A stretch of DNA of 12,505 nt from a virus (lineage: Duplodnaviria > Heunggongvirae > Uroviricota > Caudoviricetes): IMG/VR virus record IMGVR_UViG_2778261350_000008, positions 1 to 12,505 of that record. The stretch is one strand, 5' to 3'. Below the pieces are notes generated by a model that made no database searches, was not told the origin of the DNA, and worked only from the letters and a program-made list of their open reading frames with translations. The position numbers and the translations under genes were made by a program. Shown here piece after piece: positions 1 through 12,505 of this stretch. Position 1 is the first letter of the stretch. Each line of letters starts with the position of its first letter.

Positions 1-273
1 AGCCGGATTGGCGTGGGGAATCTCTACCGGCTGATGCGCGGCTATGCCACCGGCGGTTATGTCGGTACACCGGGCAGCATGGCGGAGAGCCGGTCGCAGG
101 CGTCCGGGAAGTTTGAGCAGAATAACCATGTGGTGATTAACAACAACGGCACGAACGGGCAGATAGGTCCGGCTGCTCTGAAGGCGGTGTATGACATGGC
201 CCGCAAGGGTGCCCGTGATGAAATTCAGACGCAGATGCGCGATGGTGGCCTGTTCTCCGGAGGTGGACGATGA
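1..273 (+). CDS. H: Tail tape-measure protein H, C-terminal fragment (5' end lies outside the window)
   Basis: Frame 1 is open from base 1 to the TGA at 271-273. The translation (...GNLYRLMRGYATGGYVGTPGSMAESRSQ...IQTQMRDGGLFSGGGR) matches my recollection of the lambda gpH C-terminus. Its stop overlaps the next ATG (ATGA), as in lambda H/M. Confidence 0.8.
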   Translation, partial: SRIGVGNLYRLMRGYATGGYVGTPGSMAESRSQASGKFEQNNHVVINNNGTNGQIGPAALKAVYDMARKGARDEIQTQMRDGGLFSGGGR

Positions 274-599
274 AGACCTTCCGCTGGAAAGTGAAACCCG
301 GTATGGATGCGGCTTCGGCTCCTTCCGTCAGGGAAGTGCGCTTTGGTGATGGTTACTCCCAGCGCTCGCCTGCCGGGCTGAATGCCGACCTGAAAACGTA
401 CAGCGTGACGCTCTCTGTCTCACGCGAGGAGGCCACGGCGCTGGAGTCGTTTCTGGCTGAACACGGGGGCTGGAAGGCCTTTCTGTGGACGCCGCCTTAT
501 GGCTACCGGCAGATAAAGGTGACCTGCGCAAAGTGGACAGCGCGGGTCAGCATGCTTCGTGTTGAGTTCAGCGCAGAGTTTAAACAGGTGGTGAACTGA
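270..599 (+). CDS. M: Minor tail protein M
   Basis: 109 aa, the same length as lambda gpM and near-identical as recalled (MKTFRWKVKPGMD...LRVEFSAEFKQVVN). Position H-M-L is conserved and the gene is overlap-coupled on both sides. Confidence 0.9.
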   Translation: MKTFRWKVKPGMDAASAPSVREVRFGDGYSQRSPAGLNADLKTYSVTLSVSREEATALESFLAEHGGWKAFLWTPPYGYRQIKVTCAKWTARVSMLRVEFSAEFKQVVN

Positions 600-1297
600 T
601 GCAGGATATCCGACAGGAAACACTGAATGAATGCACCCGTGCGGAGCAGTCGGCCAGCGTGGTGCTCTGGGAAATCGATCTGACAGAGGTCGGTGGAGAA
701 CGTTATTTTTTCTGTAATGAGCAGAACGAAAAAGGCAAGTCGGTTATCTGGCAGGGGAGAGAGTATCAGGCGTATCCCATTCAGGGGAGTGGTTTTGAAC
801 GGAATGGCAAAGGTGCCAGTACGCGGCCCACGCTGGCAGTCTCTAACCTGTACGGCATGGTCACCGGTATGGTGGAAGATATGCAGAGTCTGGTCGGCGG
901 AACGGTGGTCCGGCGCAAGGTCTACGCCCGTTTTCTGGATGCGGTGAACTTCATCAACGGAAACAGCGACGCCGATCCGGAGCAGGAGGTGATCAGCCGC
1001 TGGCGCATTGAGCAGTGCAGCGAACTGAGCGCGGTGAGCGCCTCTTTTGTACTGGCCACGCCGACGGAAACGGATGGCGCTGTTTTCCCGGGGCGTGTCA
1101 TGCTGGCCAACACCTGCACCTGGACCTATCGCGGTGATGAGTGCGGTTATGATGGTCCGGCTGTCGCGGATGAATATGACCAGCCGACGTCCGATATCAC
1201 GAAGGATAAATGCAGCAAATGCCTGAGTGGCTGTAAGTTTCGCAATAACGTCGGCAACTTTGGCGGCTACCTTTCCATTAACAAACTTTCGCAGTAA
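599..1297 (+). CDS. L: Minor tail protein L
   Basis: 232 aa, the lambda gpL length. The start overlaps the M stop (TGATG). Cys-rich C-terminus (CTWTYRGDECGYDG...CSKCLSGCKF) as in gpL-family proteins. Confidence 0.9.
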   Translation: MQDIRQETLNECTRAEQSASVVLWEIDLTEVGGERYFFCNEQNEKGKSVIWQGREYQAYPIQGSGFERNGKGASTRPTLAVSNLYGMVTGMVEDMQSLVGGTVVRRKVYARFLDAVNFINGNSDADPEQEVISRWRIEQCSELSAVSASFVLATPTETDGAVFPGRVMLANTCTWTYRGDECGYDGPAVADEYDQPTSDITKDKCSKCLSGCKFRNNVGNFGGYLSINKLSQ

Positions 1298-1302
1298 ATC
1301 CC

Positions 1303-2046
1303 ATGACAGAGACAGAATCAGCGATTCTGGCGCACGCCCGGCGATGTGCGCCAGCGGAGTCGTGCGGCTTCGTGGTGAGAACGCCGGAGGGGGAAAGGTA
1401 TCTTCCCTGCGTGAATATCTCCGGTGAGCCGGAGGCGTATTTCCGGATGGCTCCGGAAGACTGGCTGCAGGCAGAGATGCAGGGTGAGATTGTGGCGCTG
1501 GTCCACAGCCATCCCGGTGGACTGCCCTGGCTGAGTGAGGCTGACCGGCGGCTGCAGGTGCAGAGTGATTTGCCGTGGTGGCTGGTCTGCCGGGGGGCGA
1601 TTCACAGGTTCCGCTGTGTGCCGCATCTTACCGGGCGGCGCTTTGAGCACGGGGTGACGGACTGTTACACGCTGTTCCGGGATGCTTACCATCTGGCGGG
1701 AATTGAGATGCCGGATTTTCATCGTGAGGATGACTGGTGGCGTAACGGTCAGAATCTCTATCTGGATAACCTTGAAAGACATGGTTTTTACCGTGTCGCA
1801 CTGACAGAGGCACAGCCGGGCGATGTGCTGCTGTGCTGCTTTGGTTCATCGGTGCCGAATCATGCCGCCATTTACTGCGGCGACGGTGAGCTGCTGCACC
1901 ATATTCCTGAACAACTGAGTAAACGAGAGAGGTACACCGACAAATGGCAGCGACGCACACACTCCCTCTGGCGTCACCGGGCATGGCACGCATCTGCCTT
2001 TACGGGGATTTGCAGCGATTTGGCCGCCGCATCGACCTTCGTGTGA
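1303..2046 (+). CDS. K: Tail tip assembly protein K (JAB/MPN-like plus NlpC/P60-like domains)
   Basis: 247-aa ORF starting 5 bp after L. Contains a JAMM-like motif HSHPGGLPWLSEAD (H-x-H-x7-S-x2-D) and an NlpC/P60-like Cys/His pair (GVTDCYTLF ... NHAAIYCGDGELLHH). An internal ATG at 1447 would give the 199-aa form usually annotated for lambda K. The 3' end overlaps I by 103 nt, as in lambda. Confidence 0.85.
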   Translation: MTETESAILAHARRCAPAESCGFVVRTPEGERYLPCVNISGEPEAYFRMAPEDWLQAEMQGEIVALVHSHPGGLPWLSEADRRLQVQSDLPWWLVCRGAIHRFRCVPHLTGRRFEHGVTDCYTLFRDAYHLAGIEMPDFHREDDWWRNGQNLYLDNLERHGFYRVALTEAQPGDVLLCCFGSSVPNHAAIYCGDGELLHHIPEQLSKRERYTDKWQRRTHSLWRHRAWHASAFTGICSDLAAASTFV

Positions 2047-2579
2047 AAACGGGGGCCGAAGCCATCCGGGCGCTGGTCACACAGCTTCCCGCCTTTCGTC
2101 AGAAACTGAACGACGGCTGGTATCAGGTACGCATTTCCGGACAGGATATATCCCATGAAACATTGTTCACACAGATGAATGACACACTGCCTCCGGGCGC
2201 GGTAATACATATTGTCCCTCGCCTGGAGGGGGCAAAAAACGGAGGGGTTTTTCAGGTCGTGGCCGGTGCTGTGCTTGCTGTTGTCGGTTATGCATTAAGC
2301 TGGACAGGCATAGGTGCGGTTATTGGCAACCTTGGTGTGGCCATGATGCTTGGAGGGGTGGCACAGATGCTGGCCCCTAAATCCAGAACTCCCCGTACAC
2401 AGACAACGGATAACGGCAAACAGAATACCTATTTTTCATCACTGGATAACATGATTGCCCAGGGGAATGTTCTGCCCGTTCTGTACGGTGAAATGCGCGT
2501 GGGGTCGCGGGTGGCATCTCAGGAGATCAGCACGGCAGATGAAGGGGATGGTGGCCAGATAGTGGTGATTGGTCGATGA
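1944..2579 (+). CDS. I: Tail assembly protein I
   Basis: 211 aa. N- and C-terminal regions match lambda gpI as recalled (MAATHTLPLASPGMARICLYGDLQRFGRR... ; ...NGKQNTYFSSLDNMIAQGNVLPVLYGEMRVGSRV...). A hydrophobic Gly/Ala-rich middle is present. Starts inside the 3' end of K in another frame. Confidence 0.85.
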   Translation: MAATHTLPLASPGMARICLYGDLQRFGRRIDLRVKTGAEAIRALVTQLPAFRQKLNDGWYQVRISGQDISHETLFTQMNDTLPPGAVIHIVPRLEGAKNGGVFQVVAGAVLAVVGYALSWTGIGAVIGNLGVAMMLGGVAQMLAPKSRTPRTQTTDNGKQNTYFSSLDNMIAQGNVLPVLYGEMRVGSRVASQEISTADEGDGGQIVVIGR

Positions 2580-2597
2580 TGAAATACGTTTTATGTG

Positions 2598-2626
2598 AAA
2601 CCGCCTCCGGGCGGTTTTGTCGTTTA
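2598..2626 (+). terminator. GC-rich hairpin plus T-rich tract in the I-J intergenic gap (terminator-like or attenuator-like)
   Basis: Inverted repeat AAACCGCC (2598-2605) / GGCGGTTT (2610-2617) with loop TCCG, followed by TGTCGTTT. It sits 14 bp before the J start, so it cannot be a fully efficient terminator if J is expressed. Confidence 0.35.
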
Positions 2627-2639
2627 TGGAGCGTGAGTA

Positions 2640-5600
2640 ATGGGTAAAGGTGGTGGTAAGGCGCATACGCCCCGTGAAGCCAGAGATAATCTGAAATCAT
2701 CCCAGATGCTGAGTGTGATTGATGCCATCAGCGAAGGACCGGTTTACGGGCCTGTTGACGGGCTGAAAAGCGTGTTTCTGAACGGCACGCCGGTACTGGA
2801 CCGTGAGGGGAATGCTAACTTTTCCGGTGTCACTGTGGTGTTCCGTGCCGGTGAACAGGAGCAGACACCACCGGAGGGCTTTGAATCCTCCGGTTCAGAA
2901 ACGGTGCTGGGGACGGAAGTGAAATATGACACGCCGATCACCCGGACCATCACGTCGGCAAATATCGATCGTCTGCGCCTGACCTTCGGCGTGCAGGCAC
3001 TGGTGGAAACCACCTCAAAGGGGGACCGTAACCCCTCTTCTGTCCGCCTGCTGGTTCAGATACAGCGTAACGGTGGCTGGGTGACGGAAAAAGACATCAC
3101 CATTAAGGGCAAAACCACGTCCCAGTATCTGGCCTCGGTGGTGGTGGATAACCTGCCGCCGCGACCGTTCAGTATCCGGATGCGCAGGATGACGCCGGAC
3201 AGCACCACAGACCAGTTACAGAACAAAACGCTCTGGTCGTCATACACTGAAATCATCGATGTGAAACAGTGCTACCCGAACACGGCACTGGTCGGCGTAC
3301 AGGTGGACTCGGAGCAGTTCGGCAGTCAGCAGGTGAGCCGCACTTACCATTTTCGGGGGCGTATTCTGCAGGTGCCGTCGAACTATAACCCGCAGACGCG
3401 GCAGTACAGTGGTATCTGGGACGGAACACTTAAACCGGCATACAGCAACAACCCGGCCTGGTGTCTGTGGGACATGCTGACCCATCCGCGCTACGGCATG
3501 GGGAAACGTCTTGGTGCGGCGGATGTGGACAAATGGGCGCTGTATGTCATCGGCCAGTACTGCGACCAGTCAGTGCCGGACGGCTTTGGTGGCACGGAGC
3601 CGCGCATCACCTGTAATGCCTGGCTGACCACACAGCGTAAGGCGTGGGATGTTCTCAGCGATTTCTGCTCGGCGATGCGCTGTATGCCGGTATGGAACGG
3701 GCAGACGCTGACGTTCGTGCAGGACCGGCCGTCGGATAAGGTGTGGACCTATAACCGAAGTAATGTGGTGATGCCGGATGATGGCGCTCCGTTCCGCTAC
3801 AGCTTCAGCGCCCTGAAGGACCGCCATAATGCCGTTGAGGTGAACTGGAGTGACCCGGATAACGGCCAGGAGACGGCGACAGAGCTTGTGGAGGACACAC
3901 AGGCCATTGCCCGTTACGGTCGTAACGTCACGAAGATGGATGCCTTTGGCTGTACCAGCCGGGGGCAGGCACACCGCGCCGGGCTGTGGCTGATTAAAAC
4001 AGAACTGCTGGAAACGCAGACCGTGGATTTCAGCGTCGGCGCAGAAGGGCTTCGCCATGTACCGGGCGATGTTATTGAAATCTGTGATGATGACTATGCG
4101 GGGATCAGCACCGGTGGTCGTGTGCTGGCGGTGAACAGCCAGACCCGGACGCTGACGCTCGACCGTGAAATCACGCTGCCATCCTCCGGCACCACGCTGA
4201 TAAGCCTGGTTGACGGAAGTGGCAATCCGGTCAGCGTGGAGGTTCAGTCCGTCACCGACGGTGTGAAGGTGAAAGTGAGCCGTGTTCCTGACGGCGTTGC
4301 AGAATACAGCGTGTGGGGGCTGAAGCTGCCGACGCTGCGCCAGCGCCTGTTCCGCTGCGTCAGTATCCGTGAGAACGATGACGGCACGTATGCCATCACC
4401 GCCGTGCAGCATGTACCGGAAAAAGAAGCCATCGTGGATAACGGGGCGCACTTTGACGGTGACCAGAGCGGCACGGTGAATGGTGTCACGCCGCCGGCAG
4501 TGCAGCATCTGACCGCCGAAGTCACCGCAGACAGCGGGGAATACCAGGTGCTGGCGCGATGGGACACGCCGAAGGTGGTGAAGGGTGTGAGCTTCCTGCT
4601 TCGTCTGACCGTGGCAGCGGACGACGGCAGTGAGCGGCTGGTCAGCACAGCCAGGACGACGGAAACCACATACCGCTTCAGGCAGCTGGCGCTGGGGCGT
4701 TACACGCTGACGGTACGGGCGGTAAATGCCCAGGGGCAGCAGGGGGATCCGGCGTCGGTATCGTTCCGGATTGCCGCACCGGCAGCGCCGTCACGGATTG
4801 AGCTGACGCCGGGCTATTTTCAGATAACCGCCACGCCGCATCTTGCGGTTTATGATCCGACGGTACAGTTTGAGTTCTGGTTCTCGGAAAAGCGGATTGC
4901 GGATATCAGGCAGGTTGAAACCACAGCCCGCTATCTTGGCACGGCGCTGTACTGGATAGCTGCCAGTATCAATATCAAACCGGGCCATGATTATTACTTT
5001 TATATCCGCAGTGTGAACACCGTTGGCAAATCGGCATTCGTGGAGGCTGTTGGTCAGCCGAGTGATGATCCATCCGGCTATCTGGATTTTTTCAAAGGAG
5101 AGATAGGGAAAACCCATCTGGCTCAGGAGCTGTGGACGCAGATTGATAACAGTCAGCTTGCGCCTGACCTGGCTGAAATCAGGACGTCCATTACGGGTGT
5201 CAGCAATGAAATCACGCAGACTGTCAATAAGACACTGGAAGACCAGAGTGCAGCGATCCAGCAGATACAGAAGGTTCAGGTTGATACCAGTAATGACCTG
5301 AACAGCATGTGGGCTGTGAAGCTGCAACAGATGAAGGACGGACGCCTTTATATCGCGGGTATTGGTGCCGGTATTGGGAACACCCCCGACGGCATGCAGA
5401 GTCAGGTGCTGCTGGCGGCAGACAGGATTGCGATGATTAATCCTGCAAATGGCAACACAAAGCCGATGTTTGTGGGGCAGGGCGATCAGATATTCATGAA
5501 CGACGTGTTCCTGAAATATCTGACGGCTCCCACCATTACCAGTGGTGGTAATCCTCCGGCATTTTCCCTGACACCGGACGGGCGGCTGACGGCGAAAAAT

Positions 5601-6119
5601 GCGGATATCAGCGGTAACGTGAACGCGAACTCCGGGACGCTCAACAATGTCACGATTAATCAGAACTGCCGGATTCTGGGAAAACTGTCAGCCAATCAGA
5701 TTGAAGGCGATCTCGTTAAAACAGTGGGCAAAGCTTTCCCGCGGGACTCCCGTGCACCGGAGCGGTGGCCATCAGGGACCATTACCGTCAGGATTTATGA
5801 CGATCAGCCGTTTGACCGGCAGATTGTTATTCCGGCGGTGGCTTTCCGCGGTGCCAGACATGAGCGGGAGAATAGCGATACTTATTCGTCATGCCGTCTG
5901 ATAGTGAAGAAAAACGGTGCTGAAATTTATAACCGAACGGCTCTGGATAATACGCTGATTTACACGGGTGTTATTGATATGCCTGCAGGCAGTGGCGTAA
6001 TGACACTGGAGTTTTCTGTATCAGCATGGTGGGTAAATGGCTGGTATCCCACAGCGAGTATCAGCGATTTGCTGGTTGTTGTGATGAAGAAATCCACTGC
6101 AGGCATCACGATTAGCTGA
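2640..6119 (+). CDS. J: Tail tip / host-specificity protein J (central tail fibre)
   Basis: 1159-aa ORF (lambda J is 1132 aa) directly after I. GGAG lies 9 nt upstream of the ATG. Position and size are diagnostic; the divergent C-terminal ~250 aa would be the receptor-binding part. Confidence 0.9.
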
Positions 6120-6137
6120 ATTTTATAACCCAGATAC

Positions 6138-6163
6138 GGGCGCCAGAAATGGCGCCTTTTTTA
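6138..6163 (+). terminator. Rho-independent terminator after J
   Basis: Perfect palindromic stem GGCGCC (6139-6144) / GGCGCC (6151-6156) with loop AGAAAT, immediately followed by TTTTTTATT. Confidence 0.6.
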
Positions 6164-6186
6164 TTACAGAAAAGCGAGAGGTAATT

Positions 6187-6786
6187 ATGCGTAAAGTTTG
6201 TGCCGCCATTTTGTCCGCTGCCATCTGTCTGGTCGTATCCGGTGCGCCTGCATGGGCGTCTGAGCAGCAGGCCACACTGAGTGCAGGGTATCTTCATGCC
6301 CGGACGAACGCTCCCGGCAGCGATAATCTGAACGGGATTAACGTGAAATACCGTTATGAGTTTACGGACACGCTGGGGCTGATTACGTCCTTCAGTTATG
6401 CCAGTGCCGAAGATGAGCGAAAAACGCACTACAGCGATACCCGCTGGCATGAAGATTCCGTGCGTAACCGCTGGTTCAGCGTGATGGCGGGGCCGTCTGT
6501 GCGCGTGAATGAATGGTTCAGCGCGTATGCGATGGCGGGTATGGCTTACAGCCGGGTGTCGACTTTTTCCGGGGATTATCTCCGCGTAGCTGACAACACG
6601 GGGAAAACGCACGATGTGCTGACCGGAAGTGCTGACGGTCGCCACAGCAACACGTCTCTGGCGTGGGGCGCTGGCGTGCAGTTTAACCCGACCGAATCCG
6701 TGGCCATTGATGTCGCTTATGAAGGTTCCGGCAGTGGCGACTGGCGTACTGACGGTTTCATCGTGGGTGTTGGTTATAAATTCTGA
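6187..6786 (+). CDS. lom: Lom / Ail / PagC-family outer-membrane beta-barrel protein (lysogenic-conversion type)
   Basis: 199 aa. N-terminal signal peptide MRKVCAAILSAAICLVVSGAPAWA. The C-terminus ...VDVAYEGSGSGDWRTDGFIVGVGYKF matches the lambda Lom C-terminus as recalled. GAGAGG RBS; lambda-like position after J. Confidence 0.85.
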   Translation: MRKVCAAILSAAICLVVSGAPAWASEQQATLSAGYLHARTNAPGSDNLNGINVKYRYEFTDTLGLITSFSYASAEDERKTHYSDTRWHEDSVRNRWFSVMAGPSVRVNEWFSAYAMAGMAYSRVSTFSGDYLRVADNTGKTHDVLTGSADGRHSNTSLAWGAGVQFNPTESVAIDVAYEGSGSGDWRTDGFIVGVGYKF

Positions 6787-6808
6787 TTGTTAACACAGCT
6801 TTACGACA

Positions 6809-6835
6809 GCCCGCCGGTTCAGGCGGGCTTTTTTG
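6809..6835 (+). terminator. Rho-independent terminator after lom
   Basis: Stem GCCCGCC (6809-6815) / GGCGGGC (6822-6828), loop GGTTCA, followed by TTTTTTG. Confidence 0.6.
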
Positions 6836-6845
6836 TGGGGTGAAT

Positions 6846-9200
6846 ATGGCAGTAAAGATTTCAGGTGTACTGAAAGATGGTGCAGGTAAGCCGGTACAAA
6901 ACTGCACTATTCAACTGAAAGCCAGACGTAACAGCACCACGGTGGTGGTGAACACGGTGGCCTCAGAAAATCCGGATGAAGCAGGTCGTTACAGCATGGA
7001 TGTTGAGTACGGTCAGTACAGCGTCAGTCTGTTGGTGGAGGGGTTCCCGCCGTCACATGCCGGGACCATCACCGTCTATGAAGATTCCCGACCCGGTACG
7101 CTGAATGATTTTCTCGGTGCCATGACGGAGGATGATGCCCGTCCGGAGGCACTGCGGCGTTTTGAACTGATGGTGGAAGAAGCGGCACGTAACGCTGAAG
7201 CCGCCTCTAAGAGCGCAGCGGCGGCAAAGAAATCCGAAACTGCAGCGGCATCATCGAAGAACGCGGCGAAAACCTCAGAAACGAATGCAGCTAACAGCGC
7301 ACAGGCGGCAGCGACCTCACAGACTGCATCAGCAAACTCCGCGACAGCAGCCAAAAAATCAGAAACCAACGCGAAAAACAGCGAGACAGCCGCAAAGACG
7401 AGTGAAACTAACGCAAAGTCCAGCCAGACGGCAGCGAAGACCAGCGAAACGAATGCCAAAGCCAGTGAAACTGCGGCGAAAAGCAGTCAGGATGCAGCAG
7501 CCGAAAGCGAGAGTGCTGCAGCCGGTTCTGCGACTTCAGCAGCTGGATCAGCAACTGCTGCGGCTAACAGCCAGAAAGCCGCGAAGACGAGCGAAACTAA
7601 CGCAAAGTCCAGCCAGACGGCAGCGAAGACCAGCGAAACGAATGCCAAAGCCAGCGAAACTGCGGCGAAAAACAGTCAGGATGCAGCAGCCCAAAGCGAG
7701 AGTGCCGCAGCTGGTTCTGCAACAGCGGCAGCTAATAGCCAAAAAGCTGCAAAAACCAGTGAAACTAACGCAAAGACGAGTGAAACAAAAGCAGCAGCCA
7801 GCGAGACAGAAGCAACGTCAGCCGCAACAAGAGCAGAGAATGCAGCCCGGATTGCAGAAGATGCCGCTGATCCTGCTTCTGTCCCTCCGCTTCCTGATAT
7901 CTGGCTACCCTTGAATGATTCTCTGGAAGCGATAACAGGGTATGCCCCGGGCTATAAAACAATAACCATCGGCAGTGATGAAATAACAATGCCTGTTAAT
8001 GGCATATGCCAATTTAGCCGGGCTTCATCTGCAACGTATATTGATAAGTCCGGGCATATTACCGTGGCAGGGAATAACGTTCCTCGTTTTGAAAAATATG
8101 GTTTGCTGATAGAGAATCAGCGAACAAACATGTTCGTAAATAGTTTTAATCCTGATGCCTGGAATAAAAGCGGTGGTATATCTGTAACATCATCAACAGA
8201 TGAATTTGAGTTTAAATATGGACGTTTCACGGTAGGAAGCGATATAGCAGGAACGACAACAGGGCGAAATATATGCACAGTTGCTGGTAACAAAGGCATA
8301 GATGTGACTGGCGATGAACAGTACAGTAAAGGTCCGTATGTTACCGCGTCGTTCAGGGTAAGAAGTGATCTCAATGTTCGCGCACGTATCCGTTTTGAAC
8401 GGTATAACTCGGAAGGATACACCTTCCTTTGCGACGCCTATTTGTCATTACAGACCCATGAACTACAAATTACTGGTGGCAATGCCCAGCTATTAACAGC
8501 AAACTTTGAAATCGATCCAGGTAGTGGATGGATATATTTTCAGGCAACACTGAAATGTCTGCCAGAATGGGGAATGGTTGGTACGCAGCTGCAAATTGCA
8601 GCCGACAGAGCAGTGGGGGCTTTTGCAACAGGTGACTGGATAGAAGTAACCACCCCGCAATTCGAGTATGGTGCCTGTGCAACTTCCTTTATCATAACGA
8701 CAACAGAGCCAGCGACTCGTGCATCAGATTTATGTAAATTTCCGCTGATGAAAAATATGTATACCATGCCTTTTACGTTCATGGTGGAAGTCCATAAAAA
8801 CTGGTTTATTTCTCATAATGCTGCACCGCGTGTCATTGATTCAGAAAATCACCAGTCCGGAGGCCCATTTATTATGGGGTTTGGTTCTTCTGGAACTATC
8901 AGTCAGGATGGTTATTCGTATTGCGATATAGGCGGGGCTAACCGGCGTGTATATGAGTCATGCGGAGTAAGAGATCTCGTTATGGGATTCAGGGTTAAGG
9001 CTGACGGCATGACATGCTCATTTGCAAATAAGAATATAAGCACTGAAACCAAAACAGTATGGAAATATATTCGTGAAGCAGCCGTGATTCGTATCGGGGG
9101 GCAAACGACGACAGGATTACGACACCTTAATGGTCATATAAAAAACCTCCGTTTCTGGAACAGAGCATTGTCAGATACGCAGATTAAGGAATACGTATAA
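6846..9200 (+). CDS. stf: Side tail fibre protein, mosaic: lambda Stf-like N-terminus, Ala/Ser/Thr repeat shaft, foreign C-terminal receptor-binding region with a lectin-like (LamG/ConA-type) end
   Basis: N-terminus MAVKISGVLKDGAGKPVQNCTIQLKARRNSTTVVVN...VYEDSRPGTLNDFLGAMTEDDARPEALRRFELMVEE matches lambda Stf as recalled. The ORF track begins at a GTG (6840); the ATG at 6846 gives the lambda-like start. Residues ~120-330 are low-complexity SETNAK-type repeats. From about nt 7880 the DNA is visibly AT-richer, and the protein ends ...LRHLNGHIKNLRFWNRALSDTQIKEYV, which resembles the terminal strand motif of LamG-like jelly-roll domains. Confidence 0.8.
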   Translation: MAVKISGVLKDGAGKPVQNCTIQLKARRNSTTVVVNTVASENPDEAGRYSMDVEYGQYSVSLLVEGFPPSHAGTITVYEDSRPGTLNDFLGAMTEDDARPEALRRFELMVEEAARNAEAASKSAAAAKKSETAAASSKNAAKTSETNAANSAQAAATSQTASANSATAAKKSETNAKNSETAAKTSETNAKSSQTAAKTSETNAKASETAAKSSQDAAAESESAAAGSATSAAGSATAAANSQKAAKTSETNAKSSQTAAKTSETNAKASETAAKNSQDAAAQSESAAAGSATAAANSQKAAKTSETNAKTSETKAAASETEATSAATRAENAARIAEDAADPASVPPLPDIWLPLNDSLEAITGYAPGYKTITIGSDEITMPVNGICQFSRASSATYIDKSGHITVAGNNVPRFEKYGLLIENQRTNMFVNSFNPDAWNKSGGISVTSSTDEFEFKYGRFTVGSDIAGTTTGRNICTVAGNKGIDVTGDEQYSKGPYVTASFRVRSDLNVRARIRFERYNSEGYTFLCDAYLSLQTHELQITGGNAQLLTANFEIDPGSGWIYFQATLKCLPEWGMVGTQLQIAADRAVGAFATGDWIEVTTPQFEYGACATSFIITTTEPATRASDLCKFPLMKNMYTMPFTFMVEVHKNWFISHNAAPRVIDSENHQSGGPFIMGFGSSGTISQDGYSYCDIGGANRRVYESCGVRDLVMGFRVKADGMTCSFANKNISTETKTVWKYIREAAVIRIGGQTTTGLRHLNGHIKNLRFWNRALSDTQIKEYV
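7392..7748. repeat. In-frame tandem duplication inside the stf shaft (two units of about 189 and 168 bp)
   Basis: 7392-7580 and 7581-7748 are near-identical; unit 1 carries an extra 21 bp (7 aa, SAAGSAT). Each encodes AAKTSETNAKSSQTAAKTSETNAKASETAAK(S/N)SQDAAA(E/Q)SESAAAGSAT...AAANSQKA. Shorter, degenerate copies of the same motif flank it from about 7230 to 7800. Confidence 0.7.
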
Positions 9201-9469
9201 TGCGGGATATAACATTACGATTCGATAACAGAGAACAGTTTAACGCAATTGTATATGACAGTGGCCTGTTCAGTCTTGAAGAAGAAAATGGGATTCTTGT
9301 TGATGTTATTGGCGGCATTATTGATTACGAGGAGCCAGAAAACGAAAGATGTACAGGCATTGATCGCGGTGGTTTTTTCGTAAACATGAGGATTGTTGAT
9401 GGCAGTAAAAACATATCTTCTTTAATGCCTTTCATTACGACAGATCAGCATGTAAGGACATGGGCTTAA
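9200..9469 (+). CDS. Hypothetical 89-aa acidic protein, start-coupled to stf (candidate cognate fibre chaperone or accessory protein)
   Basis: Its ATG overlaps the stf stop (TAATG at 9198-9202). AAGGAA lies 8 nt upstream. AT-rich like the stf 3' half. I recognise no homologue. The same frame stays open for 39 codons after its TAA. Confidence 0.45.
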   Translation: MRDITLRFDNREQFNAIVYDSGLFSLEEENGILVDVIGGIIDYEEPENERCTGIDRGGFFVNMRIVDGSKNISSLMPFITTDQHVRTWA

Positions 9470-9593
9470 TGGAGCTTGCTTGTTCAGGTAGCCAGAGAAT
9501 CAGACGACAGAATAACAGCACTGGAAGAAGAAAACGCAGAATTAAGACAAAGATTATCTGCAATTGAGGCGGCGCTTGCGTCTGAATAATATT

Positions 9594-9618
9594 AAGGGGC
9601 CGAGCGCCCCGTTTTATT
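9594..9618 (+). terminator. Terminator-like hairpin ending the stf / small-ORF transcription unit
   Basis: Stem GGGGC (9596-9600) / GCCCC (9606-9610), loop CGAGC, followed by GTTTTATT. Confidence 0.45.
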
Positions 9619-9631
9619 GGGTAGGATGAAA

Positions 9632-9925
9632 ATGGATATAACACCTTTCCTTCATGCACTTTGTGCTGTGGCTGCGCAGGTACTGATTGGCCTTTTTACC
9701 GGAAACTGGGTTTACGGTGCGATAGCTGGTTGTACGTTCTTCATTGCGCGGGAACACACCCAGGCAGAATATTGCTGGATTGAAATGTTCGGGCATGGCA
9801 AGCGAATGAATATGCCGTGGTGGGGCGGTTTTGATCCGCGTGCTTGGGATGTGGCAAGCCTGATGGATTTTGCTGTGCCGGTGGTGGCGTGTCTGCTGGT
9901 CTGGCTGTTGGTTAATCGTGGGTGA
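9632..9925 (+). CDS. Hypothetical small inner-membrane protein with two predicted TM helices (prophage cargo candidate)
   Basis: MDITPFLHALCAVAAQVLIGLFTGNWVYGAIAGCTFFIA...DVASLMDFAVPVVACLLVWLLVNRG: two hydrophobic segments flank a charged, Trp-rich loop (EHTQAEYCWIEMFGHGKRMNMPWWGGFDPRAWD). AGGA lies 6 nt before the ATG at 9632. In-frame alternatives are ATG 9626 and TTG 9617. Codon use looks coding-like. No homologue recognised. Confidence 0.55.
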   Translation: MDITPFLHALCAVAAQVLIGLFTGNWVYGAIAGCTFFIAREHTQAEYCWIEMFGHGKRMNMPWWGGFDPRAWDVASLMDFAVPVVACLLVWLLVNRG

Positions 9926-9935
9926 AAAAAGGTGA

Positions 9936-10057
9936 GCTGTATATGCAACGGAGGAAGAAACCCCGTTGCTGGCGGCATGGAAGAAGTATCGGGTGCTGCT
10001 CAACCGAACTATACATCAGTAGCTCCGGACATTGAGTGGCCTGTACAACCGGAATAA
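9936..10057 (+). pseudogene. tfa: 3' remnant of a lambda-type tail fibre assembly gene (tfa), truncated and frameshifted
   Basis: One frame reads [28 protein letters not shown]. A second frame continues YTSVAPDIEWPVQPE* (ATG-initiated MEEVSGAAQPNYTSVAPDIEWPVQPE at 9977-10057). Together these match the lambda Tfa C-terminus as I recall it (...[36 protein letters not shown]...). No N-terminal portion is present; the segment begins right after the stop of the membrane-protein gene. Confidence 0.6.
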
Positions 10058-10079
10058 ATATCAGGAGGAGTAATTAATC

Positions 10080-11215
10080 GTGTCGACTCTGATTTCCGGC
10101 GTATTAAAAGATGGTGCAGGTATACCGCTGGCTGCCAGATTATCCTGAAATCCCGTGTAAACACCTCAGATGTGGTGATGTCTGTTGTTGCGCATATTGT
10201 AACCGGGCAAAACGGGGAATATGCGTTTGAGGCCCGGACGGGGAAGTACAGCGTTTATCTGAAGACTGACTGGCGTAATGAGTTTCAGGTTGGTGTTATT
10301 TCTGTTTATGAGGACTCACAACCGGGCACACTGAACGACTTCCTGATAGCAGTGAGTGATGCTGATTTGAAGCCGGACGTTCTGCGGCGGTTCGATGAGC
10401 TGGCGAGGCGTGTCCATGAAGACGCGAACAGCGCAGAACAGTTTGCCGGAGATGCCCGTCGTGCTGTGGATGAACTGGGCGGTAAGGTTCAGGACGATAT
10501 TCGTGACCGTACACCGGACCGTCTGGCTCTGCCCGGTGCTTACGGCTTCGGCGGAATATTCAGCCGCTCGGAAGCTCTGTCGTTTCAGGGGGTATCTGAT
10601 TTTGGTGCGTGGCTACAGAAAGCCACGCCGGGGCGTTATCCGGTCACTGTTGCGGATTCTTCTGCATTGCTGTTGGGCACCACGAAATTTAACGGCAACA
10701 TTGATGTGCTGTGGTCACCCTTTGATAACGACGGGTCGGACACAGCGCACAAATTCAAAACGCTGTTGTGTTACAACGAGCCACGTGCCGGAGAGCACGG
10801 GCTACACCTGCTCCAGTACTGGTACGAGGGCGACAACCTGCGGGTTGCGGGCAGTATGATAGTCTGCGACGCTCCGTCGCTGGCGACACTGCTGTCAGCA
10901 ACAGCGGGAGCGGACCCGTCAGGGTTCTACCGTTATCCGGCGGTGGGTTCCCTGTTGCTGGCAGCGTACCACGGGGCATCTGCCGGTGCTGGCGGGGTGA
11001 GTATTGCAACAGGCGACGTTGTTCCGGGCTCCTGTCTGGGGCCGGTGAGTATTCCGTGCGCGGTGAACGAAGGCGGCACAACTCCGTCGCCGCTGCGGGC
11101 GTTTGTTGGTGGTGCCGGACAGTACAATTTCCCCGGACGTTACCAGGCGTTATCCGGTGCAAATAATGTCCGTGGAAACAATGGGTTTATCTGTCTGTTT
11201 GTGCGCGTTGAGTAG
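10080..11215 (+). pseudogene. Second tail fibre gene (Stf N-terminal paralogue), disrupted by a 1-nt frameshift near 10131-10133
   Basis: The GTG at 10080 (GGAGGAG upstream) opens a frame reading VSTLISGVLKDGAGIPLAARLS*, which stops at 10146-10148. The -1 frame continues ...CQIILKSRVNTSDVV and joins the 347-aa ORF 10172..11215. The joined product aligns with the stf N-terminus (ISGVLKDGAG ; C-Q/T-I-x-LK ; VYEDSQPGTLNDFL ; LRRF-EL). The C-terminal part is Gly/Ala-rich and GC-rich. Confidence 0.6.
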
Positions 11216-11222
11216 GTGAGAA

Positions 11223-11816
11223 ATGAACGCAGTAAAAGATATTCGCAATCCGGTGCATCTCGGAAACGGCGCGGTTGACTGTGAGGTGCTGTTTGAGGGG
11301 CGCAGCGAGTACGTTGTTTATACGGCTGCGCCGGGCGACGCAGCCCCGACAGGTCAGCGTATCTGGCAGGAACTACAGAGCGGCAAATGGGGCGAAATTG
11401 CCCCGTTCACGGCCACGCCGGAACTGATAGCGGCGGCGAAGGATGCAAAACGTCAGGAAATTGAGGTGTGGCGTACCGAACAGGAAGCGCAGTCGTTCAC
11501 GTTTGAGTGGAACGGTCGAACCTGGAACGCGGGGCCGTCCTCACTGGCCCGGCTCACGCCTGCGATTACGGCGGCGGAATACGCCGGCGAGCAGGCTGTT
11601 ACCTGGAGCGATACAACCAACGAGCCGGTAAACCTGACAGTGCAGGAACTGAAATCGCTGGCCGTCGCACTGGCTCAGGCACTCTCTGAGCGGAACAACG
11701 CGATTTATCGTCGCCAGCGGGAGATGAAGGATACGTTAAACACCCTGGAGAATCTGGCAGAGGTGCAGGCGTTTAAGGTTGGAGAACAATCTATATTGGG
11801 GGTAAGCCGTATTTAG
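11223..11816 (+). CDS. Putative tail fibre assembly / chaperone protein (assigned by position)
   Basis: 197-aa ORF 8 bp after the stf2 stop, with AGGTGAG RBS. Contains a W-N-G-x-(T/A)-W motif ([11 protein letters not shown]) reminiscent of Tfa proteins (lambda Tfa has WNGTAW), but it lacks the lambda-type Tfa C-terminus seen in the remnant at 9936-10057. Confidence 0.5.
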
Positions 11817-12120
11817 CTCTTGCGCGGTTACACGCCTCATTGACGACGCCGTTCTCGCCAGACATGGCGAATTCTCTGCATGTGGATGATCGATTTTCAT
11901 ATATCGTGCAGCAGGCATTTTTGCCCGGAGTTCCAGCAAGGGCAACACATCTGGGGTTTTTCTGGTTTGTACCGATCATGCATCGGTGAAAAGGCGATAC
12001 TTGTTCAGTAAGTCTGGCGGGAATGGTGCCGCCGGCATCGTCGGCTTCGGCCCAGTAAAAAGAGACGCGGAAAAATGCACAACAGGCGCCACACGTCATG
12101 CATGGATTCAGATTGCTCAT
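11791..12120 (-). CDS. ykgJ: YkgJ-family cysteine-cluster protein (putative Zn/Fe-binding; UPF0153)
   Basis: 109 aa, beginning [25 protein letters not shown], i.e. the C-x2-C-G-x-C-C signature of the YkgJ family, with further C-terminal Cys residues ([17 protein letters not shown]). Convergent with tfa2 and overlapping it by 26 bp. Confidence 0.65.
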
Positions 12121-12139
12121 AATTCACCAGTACAGCTAT

Positions 12140-12188
12140 AAATCATAAAGAAAACAGCGGTACGTCGTATGAAAGAACTTACCGCTGT
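12140..12188 (-). terminator. Possible minus-strand terminator downstream of the DinI-like gene
   Basis: Inverted repeat ACAGCGGTA (12154-12162) / TACCGCTGT (12180-12188). On the minus strand it is followed by TTTTCTTTATGATTT. The 17-nt loop is large, hence the low confidence. Confidence 0.3.
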
Positions 12189-12256
12189 TGGCTGGTGAAC
12201 TTTTCGATAGTGCGAGTATTGAATGATTTCCAGCCGTTACCGATTTTACTCGTTAA

Positions 12257-12505
12257 TTAGCGAACAAACCACTCGTCAGCAGACTCCCAGGTATCTTTCA
12301 GCGTCTCCTGAACAAAAGTTTTTGCAGAATCTTTATCGGCGGTGCGAGTAACTGAAAGGCCATCGTTGCTGGTGGCTTTTATGATCACTTCTACATCGTC
12401 ATAACGCTTACTGATGCGTCGGGTTAATTCTTCCTTTAACGCATCCACAGCACCGTTTGGCATTTTAGTCATTTTTTCTTTGGCTATGCAGATCTCAATA
12501 CGCAT
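12257..12505 (-). CDS. DinI-family protein (DNA-damage-inducible protein I-like; modulator of RecA filament activity)
   Basis: 82 aa, [31 protein letters not shown]...[16 protein letters not shown]. Co-linear with E. coli DinI as recalled (MRIEVTIAK...AIDAL..EL.RRI...ETWESADDWFV). The ATG is the last three bases of the window (minus strand), so the promoter lies outside. Confidence 0.85.

Follow-up and report, generated by a model that had tools for sequence, protein, structure and literature searches.

The stf gene (6846..9200, + strand) of a 12,505-nucleotide (nt) stretch of Caudoviricetes DNA (IMG/VR record IMGVR_UViG_2778261350_000008, positions 1 to 12,505; hereafter the window) encodes a side tail fibre, and Pfam matches of its homologues together with structure prediction confirm that the last ~156 residues of this fibre form a predicted jelly-roll of the LamG/pentraxin type, within the ConA-like superfamily. 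This domain, here called domain 2, comprises residues 631-786 (8730..9197, +). An original prediction, made from the letters of the sequence, had proposed a LamG/ConA-type fold for the C-terminal ~150 amino acids of a side tail fibre. Both parts of that proposal stand: the fold is borne out by homologue Pfam matches, AlphaFold2 and Foldseek, and the nature of the gene by PF08400, PHROG 1419 and its position in a lambdoid operon.

The sequence evidence for domain 2 comes mainly from its relatives. A Pfam scan of the whole protein returned PF08400 only, with no LamG match. Once the scan was confined to the C-terminal fragment and the E-value limit relaxed, Laminin_G_3 (PF13385) appeared with E 7e-5 to 1e-4 and 23.0-23.4 bits, below its gathering score of 27.6 bits, over residues 735-783, which correspond to profile positions 104-151, that is, 48 of 151 positions. 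A phmmer search with residues 626-786 against 1.84 billion representatives yielded 102 relatives; those aligning over the full length did so with E 1e-57 to 1e-3, and nearly all of them carry domain 2 at the C-terminus or at most about 3 residues from the end. PF13385 was matched at E<0.01 by 22 of the 29 aligned domain sequences, and four of ten homologous domains that were scanned individually passed the gathering score (50.6, 38.6, 36.8 and 27.8 bits), their matches extending from profile positions 11-35 through 150-151 of 151. Domain 2 is homologous to these sequences and thus belongs to Laminin_G_3 transitively. The profile search proposed with the original prediction has therefore come out as expected for the homologues and not for the stf protein, which stays at 23 bits. 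When the family profile was compared with the PDB, only structures of the ConA-like superfamily were retrieved (BoNT HCN, pentraxins and sialidase lectin domains), at marginal E-values of 0.007-0.9.

Structure prediction leads to the same superfamily. A first AlphaFold2 run on residues 345-786, with a 34-sequence alignment of ~50% identity, left the LamG part at a pLDDT of ~26 and was unusable there; a second run on domain 2 alone (residues 621-786), with 29 more diverse sequences, produced an all-beta sandwich with a pLDDT of 87.8 and a pTM of 0.82. The Foldseek neighbours of this model are the pentraxins SAP and CRP, PAPP-A, BoNT HCN, CBM40 (CBM, carbohydrate-binding module) and the neurexin, agrin and perlecan LG domains, with E 6e-6 to 1e-4 and TM 0.6-0.69; laminin LG domains are also among them. 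Sequence identity to these solved structures is 9-18%, and the nearest bacterial neighbours are carbohydrate-binding, namely a CBM40 with sialyllactose and an arabinanase domain. The predicted two-sheet jelly-roll can be superposed on solved LG, pentraxin or CBM40 domains, and the structural check suggested at the outset, run here on a monomer, agrees with a fold related to jelly-roll lectins.

Why does the Pfam model recognise only the C-terminal end of domain 2? The reason is that the hydrophobic-R-x-W-N-R-A-L-S-x-x-Q-I motif is the best-conserved element of the family. By column entropy, conservation is highest in residues 749-786 (9084..9197, +), which contain a strand, the GQTTTGLRHLNG loop, the last strand LRFWNRAL and a short helix. 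This segment is nearly invariant whereas residues ~670-748 are hypervariable and carry insertions and deletions, and among the 29 diverse sequences the last strand shows the lowest column entropy (0.74). The pattern hydrophobic-R-x-(W/Y)-N-R-A-L-S-x-x-(E/Q)-I had been read beforehand as the last strand of a jelly-roll, and this is the position that it occupies in the model.

Domain 2 is preceded by another sandwich. Domain 1 (residues 423-628; 8106..8723, +) is of the head-spike-fibre type of gene transfer agents (GTA): it passes NCBIfam NF048003 (GTA_spike_fiber) with 48.2 bits against a cut-off of 36, over profile positions 1-181 of 182, and it retrieves the head spike fibre Rcc01080 of the Rhodobacter capsulatus GTA (RcGTA) by phmmer with E 1.3e-3. 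Its AlphaFold2 model reaches a pLDDT of ~80-94 over fragment residues 90-268, and Foldseek places it near the baseplate fibre of the Pseudomonas phages Pa193/E217 and near CBM4, CBM22 and CBM6 (E 1e-4 to 1e-3), so that the predicted fold is a CBM4/22/6-like beta-sandwich. PDB entry 6TB9 was considered as an experimental structure of this domain and rejected, because only chain residues 2-10 of Rcc01080 are modelled in it, leaving no experimental structure of the domain (PMC7296036); the match is one of sequence. A right-handed beta-helix of the tailspike kind was likewise set aside in favour of the confident sandwich model, Pfam Beta_helix scoring E 0.03-0.07, well below threshold.

The junction between the two domains is marked by the motif PQFEYGACATSFIITTTEPATRASD (residues 606-630; 8655..8729, +), which aligns to QLEAGAAVSSVIPTEAAAVTRAADL of Rcc01080. 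In an alignment of 34 sequences it is invariant at T605, P606, Q607, E609, G611, S616, F617, I618, T626, R627, S629 and D630, and TRA-D is at least 90% conserved across the wider family. The original prediction had noticed this PQFEYG...TRASD string and likened it to phage fibre tips in general; the motif is indeed present, and it proves to be the last strand of domain 1 plus the interdomain linker instead of a generic tip motif. In the same way, the C-terminal sequence is as had been quoted, with the feature placed from 8700 onwards, and the motif begins slightly upstream of that point. Because domain 1 immediately precedes the LamG domain in 10 of 10 divergent homologues scanned with NF048003, the two domains form one unit, and the LamG domain was never found without domain 1.

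This unit belongs to a larger one. The end of the fibre is a three-part mobile cassette made up of a neck, the two domains and a coupled open reading frame (ORF) of ~90 amino acids. The neck (residues 345-422; 7872..8105, +) is conserved in tip-bearing fibres of other phage groups with a mean identity of 58%, was modelled poorly as a monomer (pLDDT 24-43) and is the start of the low-GC (guanine plus cytosine) region. GC content drops there from ~0.55 to ~0.43; over 7800-9600, which includes the neck, both domains, the coupled ORF and a gene remnant described below, it is 0.41-0.45, compared with 0.55-0.60 on either side, which marks the cassette as compositionally foreign to the prophage.

The distribution of the cassette is consistent with its mobility. 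Most of the 234 phage records that match stf share only the first ~600-900 nt of the query, at ~86-93% nucleotide identity, a region that covers the N-terminal domain and the start of the repeats. The whole gene was matched by only four of them, the group of PhiR55_1, PhiR11_1 and PhiR47_1, plaque-forming phages whose 'side tail fiber protein' coding sequences are 95-97% identical to stf at the nucleotide level and which were propagated on Escherichia coli C, K-12 and ECOR13; we found no paper describing the PhiR phages in the literature. At 30-50% protein identity, the two-domain end occurs in 206 phage records, including T5-like phages (IrisVonRoten), Drexlerviridae, Seuratvirus (VogelGryff), Dhillonvirus, rV5-like myoviruses and other lambdoid phages, and it is also found on P2-type fibres with PF12571 and PF03406. 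The stf allele of the window (at least 95% nucleotide identity) is present in 141 of 5,426 complete E. coli genomes (~2.6%), always on the chromosome. Outside the window, the 576-amino-acid protein P0132 joins part of lambda TipJ (profile positions 220-527) to the GTA-spike plus LamG end with nothing in between; this protein is a chimeric central fibre or else an artefact of assembly or annotation.

The third part of the cassette is orf89 (9200..9469, +), a product of ~90 amino acids assigned to PHROG 1361 (E 1.2e-29 to phrog_1361). Its ATG starts at the A of the stf stop codon, with which it shares one base (TAATG). Homologues with 29-31% identity between lineages also overlap the fibre stop codon in IrisVonRoten, ev017 and VogelGryff, and PhiR55_1 has the same stf/orf89 arrangement. 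Such coupling 3' of LamG-ended fibres was seen in T5-like, Seuratvirus, Jouyvirus and lambdoid phages. In IMG/VR, a PHROG 1361 ORF abuts the stop codon of the LamG fibre at 79 of 80 loci, which represent only two or three close clades, so that the 79 are not independent observations. Searches of Pfam, NCBIfam and the PDB gave no relative of orf89, the PDB profile search returning noise only (E 0.17), and tblastn found four PhiR phages only, the family link having come from PHROG and hidden Markov model searches. Possible roles for the orf89 product are those of chaperone, adaptor or cap.

The region downstream of the small ORF varies. The window has no intact distal fibre gene after orf89; instead, a 38-codon remnant (9476..9589, +), ending in ...DDRITALEEENAELRQRLSAIEAALASE* and annotated by PGAP as 'tail fiber domain-containing protein, missing N-terminus', represents the chaperone-type C-terminal tail of a deleted distal fibre gene. 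Since the site of these last 38 codons holds an intact gene of 227 amino acids in PhiR55_1, the window is derived by deletion. Gene content at this site differs among IMG/VR loci: a PHROG 1443 protein directly follows the small ORF, with no distal fibre gene, at no fewer than 28 of them and in phage ev017, and the 227-amino-acid protein follows it in PhiR55_1 and at 14 loci. The N-terminal ~45 amino acids of the latter match phrog_4563, as do the first ~30 of Gp24 of IrisVonRoten (Bas32), and its C-terminal part aligns with the C-termini of tail-fibre PHROGs and by eye resembles a chaperone of the S74 type. Larger distal fibres follow the small ORF in Bas32 (574 amino acids) and VogelGryff. 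Taken together, the order fibre, ~90-amino-acid ORF, distal fibre is found in IrisVonRoten, VogelGryff, PhiR55_1 and about 23 IMG/VR loci, and the distal fibre proteins have their N-terminal ~50 amino acids in common.

Upstream of the cassette, stf is a lambda-type side tail fibre gene, with PF08400 at the N-terminus and a location after J and lom in a lambdoid tail operon. Its frame is uninterrupted for 786 codons (6840-9200, +), being open from a GTG at 6840, and the translation ends ...GQTTTGLRHLNGHIKNLRFWNRALSDTQIKEYV*; PHROG 1419 ('tail protein') matches it end to end with 1263 bits. The true start is probably the ATG at 6846, because PF08400 begins at residue 3 and because PGAP and the annotation of PhiR55_1 begin there. 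The N-terminal attachment domain (residues 3-133; 6846..7238, +) matches PF08400, the prophage tail fibre N-terminal family, with 234.6 bits against a cut-off of 26.6. It is followed by a shaft rich in Ala, Ser and Thr, evident in the translation as KTSETNAK-type tandem repeats (residues ~134-344; 7239..7871, +) and presumed to be a trimeric helical coiled coil. Within it, positions 7362-7815 hold about two copies of a 189-bp unit in which repeats of 42 bp and 21 bp are nested. It is inside this block that most other lambdoid phages cease to match at the nucleotide level, so that the lambda-type front end and the tip cassette were probably joined here by recombination. In RefSeq NZ_CP028751, PGAP splits stf into two 'partial' pseudogenes, AOY77_RS24880 (6846-7221) and AOY77_RS24885 (8118-9200), with the gap over the Ala/Ser/Thr repeats although the frame is open throughout, so the split is probably an annotation artefact of low-complexity repeats. 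Residues 345-786 have no Pfam or PHROG match to a distal end of the lambda or T4 gp37 type, and Pfam scans of stf revealed no similarity to S74 chaperones or to Tfa. No Tfa chaperone gene lies directly 3' of stf, a place taken by orf89; Tfa-like genes come closest to it with a fragment at 9945-10057 and the DUF4376 gene behind the second stf.

The window as a whole is the tail end of an E. coli lambdoid prophage. It is 100% identical to E. coli strains A24 and FDAARGOS_1295, where the prophage is integrated beside dusA, and its gene order is H' - M - L - K - I - J - lom - stf - small ORFs - second stf - DUF4376 assembly protein - ykgJ - dinI. The N-terminus of the second stf (10081-11215; VSTLISGVLKDGAGIPLA…) is disrupted by a 1-nt frameshift near 10135, and the ORF left over aligns to PF08400 only from profile position 34; downstream of it lies an intact DUF4376 gene resembling tail fibre assembly genes (11223-11816). 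This second stf and the DUF4376 gene look like an older stf-tfa pair that was displaced by the LamG-ended cassette. Between the cassette and this pair, an ORF of 97 amino acids belonging to PHROG 1443 (9632-9925) encodes what appears by eye to be a membrane protein. Most related prophages, like phages ev017 and PhiR55_1, have this ORF behind their fibre cassette, and it is possibly a moron or a superinfection-exclusion gene.

What might such a fibre end do? We consider it somewhat probable that the two sandwich domains serve primary, reversible adsorption by adhering to glycans with low affinity, and that they constitute the true distal end of the fibre in this prophage. Both domains would act multivalently and would give a reversible first contact with surface polysaccharide, be it the lipopolysaccharide (LPS) core, O-antigen, enterobacterial common antigen or capsule, after which the J protein would engage the terminal receptor. 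Specificity would come from the hypervariable middle of the LamG domain (~670-748) and from the variable domain 1; the invariant strand and loop at the C-terminus would serve the fold itself or a contact that is conserved. A second, distal fibre would be carried in addition by the fibre end of such relatives as IrisVonRoten and PhiR55_1; in this prophage the LamG domain would be the true distal end because the distal fibre gene has been deleted. This reading is supported by the CBM- and lectin-type folds, the hypervariable LamG middle, the many prophages that have the cassette without a distal fibre and, as the strongest indirect evidence for a sugar ligand, the capsule-binding relative of domain 1. 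Moreover, since the PhiR phages grow on E. coli C, K-12 and ECOR13, O-antigen is ruled out as an obligatory receptor, in agreement with an adhesin of accessory role. On these grounds we infer that the LamG tip may bind glycan.

Several points weigh against this reading. The LamG fold also binds proteins, as in neurexin, as well as lipids and small molecules, and to our knowledge the BoNT HCN domain has no established lectin role. The literature searched contained no binding data for domain 2 or a close homologue; the stf protein itself falls below the Pfam Laminin_G_3 threshold, and the structure models of the fibre end are monomers. Within the group of ~50% identity, domain 2 varies less than domain 1 (entropy 0.43 against 0.94), which is unlike what would be expected of the main specificity determinant, and the loop and strand at the C-terminus of the LamG domain, being nearly invariant, could serve as a contact between proteins. 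Finally, the IrisVonRoten homologue has been modelled mainly as a proximal fibre that holds an O16-binding distal fibre (PMC11990801).

This last point leads to the main rival to the adhesin reading, according to which the two-domain end and the small ORF would be chiefly a socket for an interchangeable distal fibre, in a two-piece or branched fibre. The LamG domain would then bind the small protein or the N-terminus of the distal fibre and no host glycan, and in the window the socket would be a leftover after the deletion. Such a role is suggested by IrisVonRoten Gp22, which has a 50% identical end and serves in the published model as proximal fibre for the T-shaped Gp24 (PMC11990801), by the recurring gene order and the common N-terminal ~50 amino acids of the distal proteins, by the near-invariance of the LamG loop and strand, as expected of a protein-protein contact, and by the remnant of a distal gene in the window. 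However, many prophages, and ev017 as well, have kept the cassette with its small ORF intact while lacking any distal fibre gene, and this argues for a function of its own; both domains have folds of the carbohydrate-binding-module type, and in the Bas32 paper itself the lectin-like domain is said to protrude and to be a possible additional domain for receptor binding (PMC11990801). We therefore regard a pure docking role as unlikely, and the two minor rivals as less likely still. That the LamG-like domain recognises an outer-membrane protein instead of a sugar, in the manner of many eukaryotic LG/LNS domains, is improbable: the neurexin LNS, agrin and laminin LG domains among the structural neighbours do bind proteins, and OmpC has been suggested as the primary receptor of Ur-lambda Stf (stated in PMC11990801), but the closest bacterial neighbours, CBM40 with sialyllactose and the arabinanase domain, bind carbohydrate, a relative of the partner domain binds capsule polysaccharide (PMC10218006), and glycan targets are generally, if largely by inference, assigned to the lateral fibres of the groups that carry the cassette (PMC8594841).

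A purely structural module, which would cap, fold or trimerise the fibre in place of Tfa or an intramolecular chaperone and bind nothing on the host, seems very improbable. It would account for the coupling of stf to orf89 in place of a directly following Tfa-type chaperone gene and for a strictly C-terminal domain whose last ~40 residues are very conserved. Nevertheless, a hypervariable middle rich in insertions and deletions is unexpected in a purely structural cap, the fibre has no S74 chaperone or Tfa similarity, and the related RcGTA fibre is a single flexible subunit that works without such a cap (PMC7296036). As for a chance resemblance of the C-terminal string to a LamG strand, with no real domain behind it, only the sub-threshold direct Pfam match over 48 of 151 profile positions speaks in its favour, and it is refuted by the homologues that pass the threshold, the AlphaFold2 sandwich and the Foldseek neighbours, so that its probability is negligible.

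A broader proposal would combine adhesion with docking. It is conceivable, though doubtful, that the neck, the GTA-spike domain, the LamG domain and the ~90-amino-acid protein constitute a universal mobile plug-and-socket end, at once an adhesin itself and a socket for distal fibres, in which the invariant LamG loop and strand and the small protein might dock interchangeable distal fibres through their shared ~50-amino-acid N-terminal plug. If this were true, lambdoid, T5-like, Drexlerviridae, Queuovirinae, rV5-like and P2-type phages would gain or lose a second receptor specificity through one gene, and the window would represent the 'unplugged' state. Irrespective of this proposal, the analysis sets right the annotation of a fibre allele carried by ~2.6% of complete E. 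coli genomes and makes it complete, delimiting two domains in the C-terminal 440 residues of stf, where Pfam shows none. It gives domain boundaries for a candidate receptor-binding cassette of many coliphage groups used in phage therapy and host-range engineering, and the ~90-amino-acid protein and the optional distal fibre provide handles on modular fibre assembly. The LamG-fold ending is a widespread, swappable phage fibre end, and the finding, although correct, is fairly ordinary: it will not surprise phage specialists, who expect lectin folds at the ends of lateral fibres and have already described one homologue in these terms.

How does this fibre end compare with known systems? Domain 2 has the same last-strand motif as Laminin_G_3, pentraxin and CBM40 domains. 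Domain 1 resembles Rcc01080, aligning to its residues 45-284 and including the ...E.G...S.I.T.....TRA.D ending. The tagged recombinant Rcc01080 protein binds the capsule polysaccharide of R. capsulatus (PMC10218006), no other experimentally shown ligand being known for a relative of the cassette. Unlike the end of a tail fibre, Rcc01080 is a single subunit on the capsid penton (PMC7296036), and unlike stf it ends ~30 residues past its TRAADL motif, with no LamG domain.

With lambda Stf/Tfa and Gifsy-1 Stf, the window stf shares the PF08400 N-terminus, the position after J and lom and a presumed accessory role in adsorption, but the C-terminal half is unrelated and no Tfa gene directly follows. 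Gifsy-1 Stf, which is 50.65% identical to Ur-lambda Stf, was shown experimentally to bind the Gal II residue of the LPS core without a lectin-fold end (PMC12312913). It was rejected as a direct precedent, since its end is of the lambda type. A side tail fibre can thus bind an LPS sugar without a lectin fold, and the rule implicit in the original prediction, a sugar receptor for a lectin fold and otherwise a porin, is too simple. In the branched fibres of the T5-like phages DT57C and DT571/2, the first fibre protein, LtfA, likewise carries a second, LtfB, and both are able to bind receptors (PMC4728585, PMC10713586). These two proteins were weighed as the nearest characterised system; since each of them terminates in a self-cleaving S74/pfam13884 chaperone domain and not in the tandem of GTA-spike and LamG domains, they were rejected as homologues of the fibre end and are retained as an analogy only.

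The closest described counterpart is Gp22 of the Tequintavirus IrisVonRoten (bas32_0022), whose C-terminal 388 amino acids are ~50% identical to those of stf. There, too, a small protein, the 92-amino-acid Gp23 of PHROG 1361 (31% identity to orf89), overlaps the fibre stop codon. The two systems differ at both ends, the N-terminal attachment being of the T5 type in IrisVonRoten and of the lambda type (PF08400) here, and an intact distal fibre of 574 amino acids standing there in the place of the 38-codon remnant. Humolli et al. (2025) modelled Gp22 as a proximal fibre carrying the O16-binding, T-shaped Gp24, and in their AlphaFold-Multimer model a 'galectin-like domain' protrudes from the C-terminus as a possible extra receptor-binding domain (PMC11990801). 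A lectin-fold end has thus been published before for this fibre family; that account names one lectin-like domain, whereas our analysis resolves the end into two stacked sandwich domains.

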